NCBI RefSeq assembly: GCF_055900595.2
Contig: NZ_CM148325.1
Length of the DNA: 64,000 nucleotides
Strand: one strand, 5' to 3'
Shown: positions 60,295 through 60,728 of the stretch, piece after piece
Position numbering within the stretch: the first letter of the stretch is position 1
How the letters are laid out: each line of letters starts with the position of its first letter
Notes under the pieces: model-generated
Database searches by the model: none
Told to the model about the DNA's origin: nothing
The model's input: the letters and a program-made list of their open reading frames with translations, nothing else
Made by a program: the position numbers and the translations under genes

Positions 60295-60728
60295 ATGTAA
60301 ATTATCAATAAAGGGCGTTATTTCATTATTATTTTAATGAGTTATGAGCGTTTATTTTATTACGGTTGGTAGTAATATACAAAAAGTATTTTTTCAGTGG
60401 GTTCGCTATTTTAAAAAGGAATTCATATGAGAAATAAAAAATAATTATGTTATTTATTGGTAGATTGAATTGACAGGGGGCAGAAATCTGAGGGTAAGAA
60501 AAGTCAGCAACTACAATCCACTACATCAACAGACCAGCAATCGCGTGCCGCGATACGCTGGAAATACCCGTAGATTGAACTGGCGGATGGTGTGACTGAC
60601 ATCGGTCAGTGATGACTTTTTAGCAAACTATGTTCGATCAGTCAGCATATTTGCTGACTGGTCGAATTGACTAACAATGATGTTAACTTACTCTTTTCCT
60701 GATGATCTATTTTTGGGTTGTGAGTGTT

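Follow-up and report, generated by a model that had tools for sequence, protein, structure and literature searches.

The AT-rich interval between yfbL and elaD, at positions 60295–60728 of the window (the whole 64,000-nt stretch of DNA analysed here), is almost certainly a decayed, non-functional relic of yfbK, which encodes a vWA-domain lipoprotein. It is an old and common scar of gene loss, ordinary in kind, rather than a novel RNA or regulatory element. With this reading a candidate 'mystery' intergenic element drops out, and the lack of yfbK in BL21, in O157:H7 and in about half of E. coli is accounted for.

The interval occupies the position of yfbK

In the gene map of the window, nuoN (57192–58649, + strand) and yfbM (58716–59219, − strand) lie on the yfbL side of the interval, and rbn (62083–63018, − strand) lies on the elaD side, with elaA and elaB beyond. 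The K-12 MG1655 order is yfbL(−)/yfbK(+, 1728 nt)/elaD(−), which confirms the statement in the first-pass annotation that yfbK lies between yfbL and elaD. Comparison of the maps of K-12, N1083 and ABU 83972 with that of the window places the interval at the syntenic position of yfbK. The earlier description of the interval as AT-rich and lacking yfbK also held: yfbL ends at 60294 and the elaD ORF at 60729, with only a 41-aa and a 32-aa ORF between them, and the GC content is 35.3% (22.9% in the left 166 bp), against 51.8% for the whole window. Since elaD of relatives ends at 60683–60685, their non-coding gap is 60295–60682.

The first 132 nt of the interval (60295–60426), which are very AT-rich, were identified by alignment to yfbK+ spacers as the former yfbL–yfbK divergent intergenic region. 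They are 68–69% identical to the 137-nt yfbL–yfbK spacer of yfbK+ genomes and 82.6% identical to the spacer of L032, a cryptic-clade Escherichia locus with intact yfbK. They presumably contain the yfbL promoter and 5′ UTR. A promoter scan of 60100–60900 returned 0 sites, against 3.6 expected in shuffles, and as the yfbL promoter too went undetected, its assignment here stays presumptive. As putative promoter and leader, this AT-rich stretch beside yfbL likely still matters; within the window the promoter role is moot, because yfbL itself is broken.

Three pieces of yfbK remain

The yfbK+ reference used for alignment was strain N1083 (locus L003, with yfbK at 2786–4540). Three colinear matches to it were obtained, in the order, orientation and frame of yfbK. 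Window 60100–60552 matches L003 2455–2917, comprising the 5′ end of yfbL, the yfbL–yfbK spacer and yfbK nt 1–132; window 60552–60570 matches L003 4267–4285 (blastn), inside yfbK at codons I-R-W-K-Y-P; and window 60573–60798 matches L003 4501–4728 at 92%, comprising the last 40 nt of yfbK, the spacer beyond and the 3′ end of elaD.

The 5′ remnant (gene nt 1–132; 60427–60552, + strand), defined by alignment to yfbK of N1083, K-12 and ABU 83972, begins with the start ATG at 60427–60429 and continues with signal peptide and lipobox codons. Its identity is 77–80% to E. coli yfbK+ alleles and 81–83% to loci L032 and L030. In this window a single nucleotide is missing from the A-run that follows the start codon, which breaks the frame, and a 5-nt deletion has removed the lipobox Cys codon. 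Next comes a 21-nt internal piece (gene nt 1483–1503, codons I-R-W-K-Y-P-Q; 60553–60573, + strand), recognized by blastn and sequence comparison (ATTCGCTGGAAATACCCGCAG versus ATACGCTGGAAATACCCGTAG). Strain HYM1 keeps 20 of its 21 positions, and in the window a C to T change at 60571 makes an in-frame TAG. The 3′ remnant (gene nt 1717–1755, I-E-L-A-D-G-V-T-D-I-G-Q-stop; 60574–60612, + strand) was defined by alignment to L003 and retains the stop TGA at 60610–60612. When full-length yfbK was used as the query, scar genomes matched it only at nt 1716–1755.

The missing stretches are ∼1350 bp (nt 133–1482) and ∼213 bp (nt 1504–1716), both multiples of three, and each deletion junction has 1-nt microhomology, a single G. 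Thus ∼1563 of 1755 nt (89%) of yfbK are absent, the rest carries frameshifts and stops, and an intact vWA/YfbK_C ORF is not present.

We propose that the ancestor had the arrangement yfbL(−)/yfbK(+)/elaD(−), and that illegitimate deletions of ∼1350 and ∼213 bp, either separate or parts of one complex event, took 89% of yfbK. The 5-nt lipobox deletion also occurred, in any order relative to the other two. The 5′ 132 nt, the 21-nt internal piece and the last 39 nt were left and have since drifted, with point changes, small indels, loss of start codons and new stop codons by lineage, and about half of E. coli now carry the resulting scar allele.

RefSeq annotates a 44-aa 'hypothetical protein', WP_001376971.1, in the HYM1 scar (L007 1685–1819, equivalent to about 60479–60612 of the window). 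Its coordinates place its end close to the stop codon of yfbK, so it is probably a leftover yfbK reading frame, and the annotation is very likely spurious. Any short ORF annotated in this spacer should be taken as a remnant reading frame.

The scar is common in E. coli and traces to loss of yfbK

A survey of 5426 complete E. coli genomes found the whole 434-nt spacer in 2577, including BL21 and EDL933, and full-length yfbK in 2513. A left-flank marker divided the genomes into ∼2802 of scar type and 2533 of yfbK+ type, with no intermediates. The 434-nt query aligned as one piece in the sampled rows of the survey, at a median of 1 place per genome and a maximum of 2. The first-pass annotation had held that a regular adjacency of yfbL and elaD with this same spacer would speak against a deletion; that adjacency is indeed found in the 2577 genomes, but it leaves the deletion standing and shows it to be old and common.

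Seven scars were aligned: those of the window, 2020CK-00188, R32_14_1F, HYM1, a wild-bird isolate, BL21 and EDL933. Both deletion junctions are identical in all seven, so the comparison with E. coli genomes that had been suggested did yield yfbK deletion junctions, the same ones in every scar aligned. The 5-nt lipobox deletion is also common to these scars, the gap being 3 nt in the wild-bird isolate. Otherwise they vary in substitutions, small indels and stops, with a start codon of ATA in BL21, EDL933 and HYM1; no ORF is conserved among them, and the mean pairwise difference in the remnant pieces is 4–7%, which speaks for a lack of constraint. Judged from these alignments, the scar is one inherited event. 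The junction pattern CGCTGGAAATACCCGNAGATTGAACTGG gave 0 matches in the GTDB species representatives, so no other species has the scar in its representative genome.

Since about half of E. coli is without yfbK, the spacer might conceivably be an ancestral empty site, with yfbK inserted in K-12-like strains and nothing lost, and some neighbours, elaD for one, do have the look of insertions: elaD is missing from cryptic clades and low in GC (34.6%). An empty site, however, would not hold the first 132 nt, a 21-mer and the last 39 nt of yfbK, in frame and in order. Moreover, cryptic-clade Escherichia, for example the E. ruysiae-containing cluster and Escherichia sp. KTE96, have the order rbn–yfbK–yfbL with yfbK intact at the same position and elaD absent. 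The in-order remnants and the intact outgroup genes together indicate that yfbK was lost here and not gained in K-12; we give insertion practically no credence and consider it ruled out.

yfbK has also been lost independently in a lineage labelled E. coli or unclassified Escherichia (L030 4481–5000). There a single deletion with other junctions leaves ∼115 nt from the start of yfbK fused to ∼170 nt from its end, and yfbL is intact. In Salmonella, a table of genes that typhoid agents have gained or lost in common includes yfbK for Paratyphi C (PMC2640428), and the gene is among the hypothetically disrupted coding sequences of S. Typhimurium U288 (bioRxiv 10.1101/2020.09.09.288845). yfbK thus seems prone to loss.

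The direct repeat and TTGACA hexamer

The 13-bp imperfect direct repeat described earlier was recovered by a repeat scan, with copies that match at 12 of 13 positions. Copy 1 (GTAGATTGAATTG; 60460–60472, + strand) lies in decayed yfbK signal-peptide codons, and copy 2 (GTAGATTGAACTG; 60570–60582, + strand) lies across deletion junction 2. Since 7% of dinucleotide-preserving shuffles of the interval contain a 13-mer repeat with at most one mismatch, the direct repeat is not beyond chance.

Comparison with other alleles accounts for the match. At the site of copy 1, intact yfbK has GTAGTTTGATTTT, and BL21 and EDL933 have GCAGATTGAGTTG; at the site of copy 2, intact yfbK has CCTGATTGAACTG. Within copy 2, GATTGAACTG corresponds to the native yfbK codons (L)-I-E-L, and the T at 60571 is lineage-specific, the base being C in HYM1 and A in BL21 and EDL933. 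The two sites agree at only 7 of 13 positions in intact yfbK and at 10 of 13 in the BL21 and EDL933 scars, so that the 12/13 match is due to lineage-specific substitutions. The TTGACA hexamer that had been pointed out is present at 60470–60475; it arose by drift from TTTTGTCA, and GTAAGA stands where a −10 hexamer should be. Both the repeat and the hexamer are by-products of drift.

A role for the direct repeat as the substrate of deletion was considered and rejected, because both copies remain, copy 1 is away from the junctions, the sites match at 7/13 in intact yfbK and the microhomology at the junctions is 1 nt. As far as these comparisons go, the repeat is neither a deletion substrate nor a conserved site.

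Hairpins at the 3′ ends of yfbK and elaD

The perfect 8-bp inverted repeat reported earlier (CAGTCAGC/GCTGACTG; 60639–60646 and 60653–60660) was found where described and is the core of a larger hairpin at 60633–60666, detected by inverted-repeat scan and folding. This hairpin has 15-nt arms (60633–60647 and 60652–60666) and a 4-nt loop; the arms form 14 Watson–Crick pairs, 7 of the pairs being G-C, and one G.U pair. Folded, the + strand reaches a free energy of −24.7 kcal/mol and the − strand one of −19.7 kcal/mol; the 78 nt around the hairpin fold with z = −5.2 relative to shuffles, which makes it more than a chance structure. The yfbK stop precedes it by 20 nt on one side, and the elaD stop of relatives (60683–60685) is 16 nt away on the other. 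In the yfbK+ genome N1083 the arms pair perfectly (15/15), and the inverted repeat therefore predates the deletion. Among eight scars, 2 of the 34 columns of the hairpin are variable; the mean difference is 2.8%, against 4–7% in the remnants, with too few differences to separate the two and with the LR4 row imperfectly trimmed.

Position and pairing suggest that this is a probable shared 3′-end or terminator hairpin of the convergent genes yfbK and elaD, now serving elaD alone, which would form or protect the 3′ end of the elaD transcript and so would likely still matter. It resembles the bidirectional terminators and 3′-end stabilizers of convergent genes in being a palindrome with 15-bp arms that stands 16–20 nt after both stops, folds on both strands and is conserved in both haplotypes. 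Like a canonical intrinsic terminator it has a G+C-rich stem-loop (15 pairs), but unlike one it is followed by no U-tract on either strand, the + strand continuing UUGACUAACAAUG and the − strand CAUAGUUUGCUAAAAAG, and it thus falls outside the canonical definition.

A second, 6-bp hairpin (ACTGAC/GTCAGT, stem 60595–60610) spans the yfbK stop and is followed by a T5 run (60595–60622 in all, + strand; terminator scan and fold). This weak (−7 kcal/mol), terminator-like structure is now an orphan. It is also found in yfbK+ genomes, and its T-run is interrupted in N1083 and BL21.

A REP- or MITE-type palindrome was rejected as an identity for the larger hairpin. The spacer has a median of 1 and a maximum of 2 places per genome, and a search of the GTDB species representatives with the palindrome pattern returned 18 unrelated palindromes (Prevotella, Pseudomonas, Clostridia and others) and no match in Escherichia, an uninformative outcome.

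Small-RNA and regulatory readings of the interval

The first-pass annotation had suggested that the repeats could be a deletion scar, a regulatory site for the divergent yfbL promoter or an unannotated small RNA. The scar proposal holds for the interval, the whole of which is the yfbK scar; it does not hold for the repeats, which are not the signature of the deletion, since the junctions have 1-nt microhomology and the hairpin is older. The other two proposals gained no support. A small RNA in the gap might end, for example, at the 60595–60610 hairpin with its T-run or at 60633–60666. In its favour are two stable hairpins, of which one was flagged as terminator-like, and a 264-nt stretch that folds better than shuffles (z = −4.0). 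Against this, both hairpins pre-exist in yfbK+ genomes, as the yfbK 3′ end and the yfbK–elaD spacer, and the sequence upstream of them is decayed coding DNA in which scars differ by indels and in their start and stop codons. A Rfam 15 scan of 59000–62200 at permissive thresholds yielded nothing but noise from eukaryotic snoRNA and lncRNA families, with E-values of at least 0.2 throughout; no sigma-70-like promoter was found on either strand of 60100–60900; and searches of the literature on yfbK, yfbL and elaD turned up no paper on a small RNA or other transcript at this place. We regard a small RNA here as very improbable.

We find it more improbable still that the direct repeats form a paired binding site regulating the divergent yfbL promoter. 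The 12/13 match, the 110-nt spacing and the location upstream of yfbL would suit such a site, but a repeat of this quality is expected by chance at the frequency given above, and no promoter-like site accompanies it. Measured from the start codon of yfbL, the copies are 166 and 276 nt away, within former yfbK coding sequence, and they agree at only 10/13 in the BL21 and EDL933 scars and 7/13 in intact yfbK. In addition, yfbL is itself inactivated in the window, and an internal yfbL segment is missing from ∼2100 genomes. The yfbK scar thus remains our reading of the interval.

The left flank belongs to a deep allele class

A sliding identity window against K-12 and N1083 gave ∼70–76% from about 60215 to 60552 and 90–97% on the elaD side of the scar; across elaD and rbn, BL21 hardly differs from K-12. 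The divergent stretch covers ∼300 bp: yfbL codons 4–18, the intergenic region and the yfbK 5′ remnant. Within the YfbL protein, only signal-peptide residues 4–18 differ (MKKITPLCFISLLLSLPF versus MKKINFAFIILFLFSLPL). Left-flank identity is bimodal, at ∼88–99.5% in sampled scar-type genomes and 77–79% in sampled yfbK+ genomes.

Over 260 bp of spacer and 5′ remnant, the scars are 81–84% identical to L032, 78–81% to L030 and 69–74% to E. coli yfbK+ alleles, and the latter are 90% identical to Escherichia sp. KTE96. The yfbL body, on the other hand, follows the species tree, with 93.6% identity to K-12 and 82% to L032. A divergence of 26–31% from E. coli yfbK+ alleles far exceeds the drift expected since a recent deletion in situ, and therefore implies a history beyond a deletion in the E. 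coli ancestor. Rather than a recent loss in situ, the scar could represent one side of an old two-allele system that sits at the yfbL–yfbK junction and crosses species lines, a tentative suggestion to which we lend rather less than even weight. The identities point either to introgression of an already decaying allele from another Escherichia lineage, or to a long-lived presence/absence polymorphism or old allele classes that Escherichia lineages have exchanged.

At elaA, window 63065–63526 is 82.5% identical to ABU 83972 (B2; L009 5846–6307), which is as divergent there as the cryptic-clade copies; deep allele classes thus span the whole neighbourhood.

Relation to known systems and to the literature

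Bacterial pseudogenes decay by deletional bias, leaving gene remnants and 'scars', as reportedly described by Mira, Ochman and Moran in 2001 and in later work. The yfbK scar resembles this process in its course, from relaxed selection to inactivation and erosion by deletions with little or no junction homology, and in its outcome, terminal fragments that stay and drift roughly neutrally. Nothing about it is unusual in kind; what sets it apart is that the two large deletions are multiples of 3 and that the allele is old and present in half of E. coli. Compared with K-12 yfbK, it has the same position, divergent from yfbL and convergent with elaD, and homology at nt 1–132, 1483–1503 and 1717–1755. 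In contrast to that gene, which has vWF_A (PF12450), VWA (PF00092) and YfbK_C (PF12034) domains, it is 89% missing, its frame is broken and it encodes no domain.

A description of the scar was not found in the literature on yfbK, yfbL and elaD, and a 2025 survey of ElaD does not discuss the flanking genes (PMC12575377). Three side observations may be of use to E. coli population genomics or to work on the unknown function of YfbK and YfbL: the deep allele classes that E. coli has in common with cryptic clades, the decay of yfbK and yfbL together, and the apparent insertion of elaD.

Decay and variation of the flanking genes

In the window yfbL (59322–60294, − strand), which encodes an M28 metallopeptidase, is a pseudogene in three broken ORFs, as seen from frame translations and comparison with R32_14_1F. 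This nearest genome is 99.3% identical over 3.45 kb and has an intact yfbL of 972 nt. An extra T in the run at 60284–60291 (8 T versus 7) shifts the yfbL frame after codon 3, and a TGG to TAG change at 59646–59648 is a nonsense mutation.

elaD, for an ElaD/SseL deubiquitinase, extends over 60683–61895 (− strand) by ORFs, relatives and translations, and the window ORF covers 60729–61895 (388 aa). In relatives elaD runs 45 nt further, to the stop at 60683–60685, and ElaD has 403–407 aa. Relative to R32_14_1F the window has lost single Ts at about 60694 and about 60732, the latter causing a frameshift by which the ORF ends at 60729 and ElaD is shortened by 16 residues. The three single-T indels (60284–60291, about 60694 and about 60732) are in homopolymers and so could be sequencing errors.

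A ∼325-bp deletion inside yfbL (about 59707–60029 of the window) is common to BL21, EDL933, the wild-bird isolate and LR4 (seen in L002, L004, L008 and L028). The deleted segment is absent from 2116 of the 5426 genomes, the deletion itself having been checked in four, and the absences are apparently all on the yfbK-scar background. In an evenly spaced sample, degraded yfbL was annotated in 21 of 29 scar-type genomes against 0 of 28 yfbK+ genomes. The lesions of yfbL in the window are independent of the ∼325-bp deletion, and yfbL thus tends to decay on the scar background. A functional pairing of YfbK with YfbL is hinted at by this pattern, but no more than hinted at, because the independent events are few.

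B2 strains such as ABU 83972 have yfbK and lack elaD, and elaD is absent from all B2 and G strains examined in the published survey (PMC12575377). It is also absent from L030, L032, L033 and L035, as from the B2 locus L009, and rbn adjoins yfbK in these loci. Its absence from both the cryptic-clade loci and B2 makes elaD, at 34.6% GC, look inserted in non-B2 E. coli and not lost in B2.

Further rearrangements were seen at the locus. Strain CUVET20-PYO2 (L029 2501–2822) has a fourth haplotype, besides yfbK+/elaD+, scar/elaD+ and yfbK+ without elaD: its left flank is of scar type, and a further deletion has taken out the remainder of the scar together with most of elaD. Gene callers annotate, in some assemblies and on 86 contigs, a 378-aa protein (P0005) in which the N-terminus of ElaD is fused to YfbL.

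On the far side of yfbL, nuoN and yfbM are 66 bp apart in the window, N1083, ABU 83972, EDL933 and R32_14_1F, and K-12 has yfbN beside yfbM (window 58650–58715 compared with L006 1–785). Given the 66-bp distance in those genomes, yfbN looks like an addition of the K-12 lineage; K-12 presumably also has yfbO and yfbP near yfbN and yfbM. In the BL21(RP) record (L002 1–1765), fadL and a yfdF pseudogene lie beyond yfbM in place of nuoN, which indicates a rearrangement adjoining the locus.
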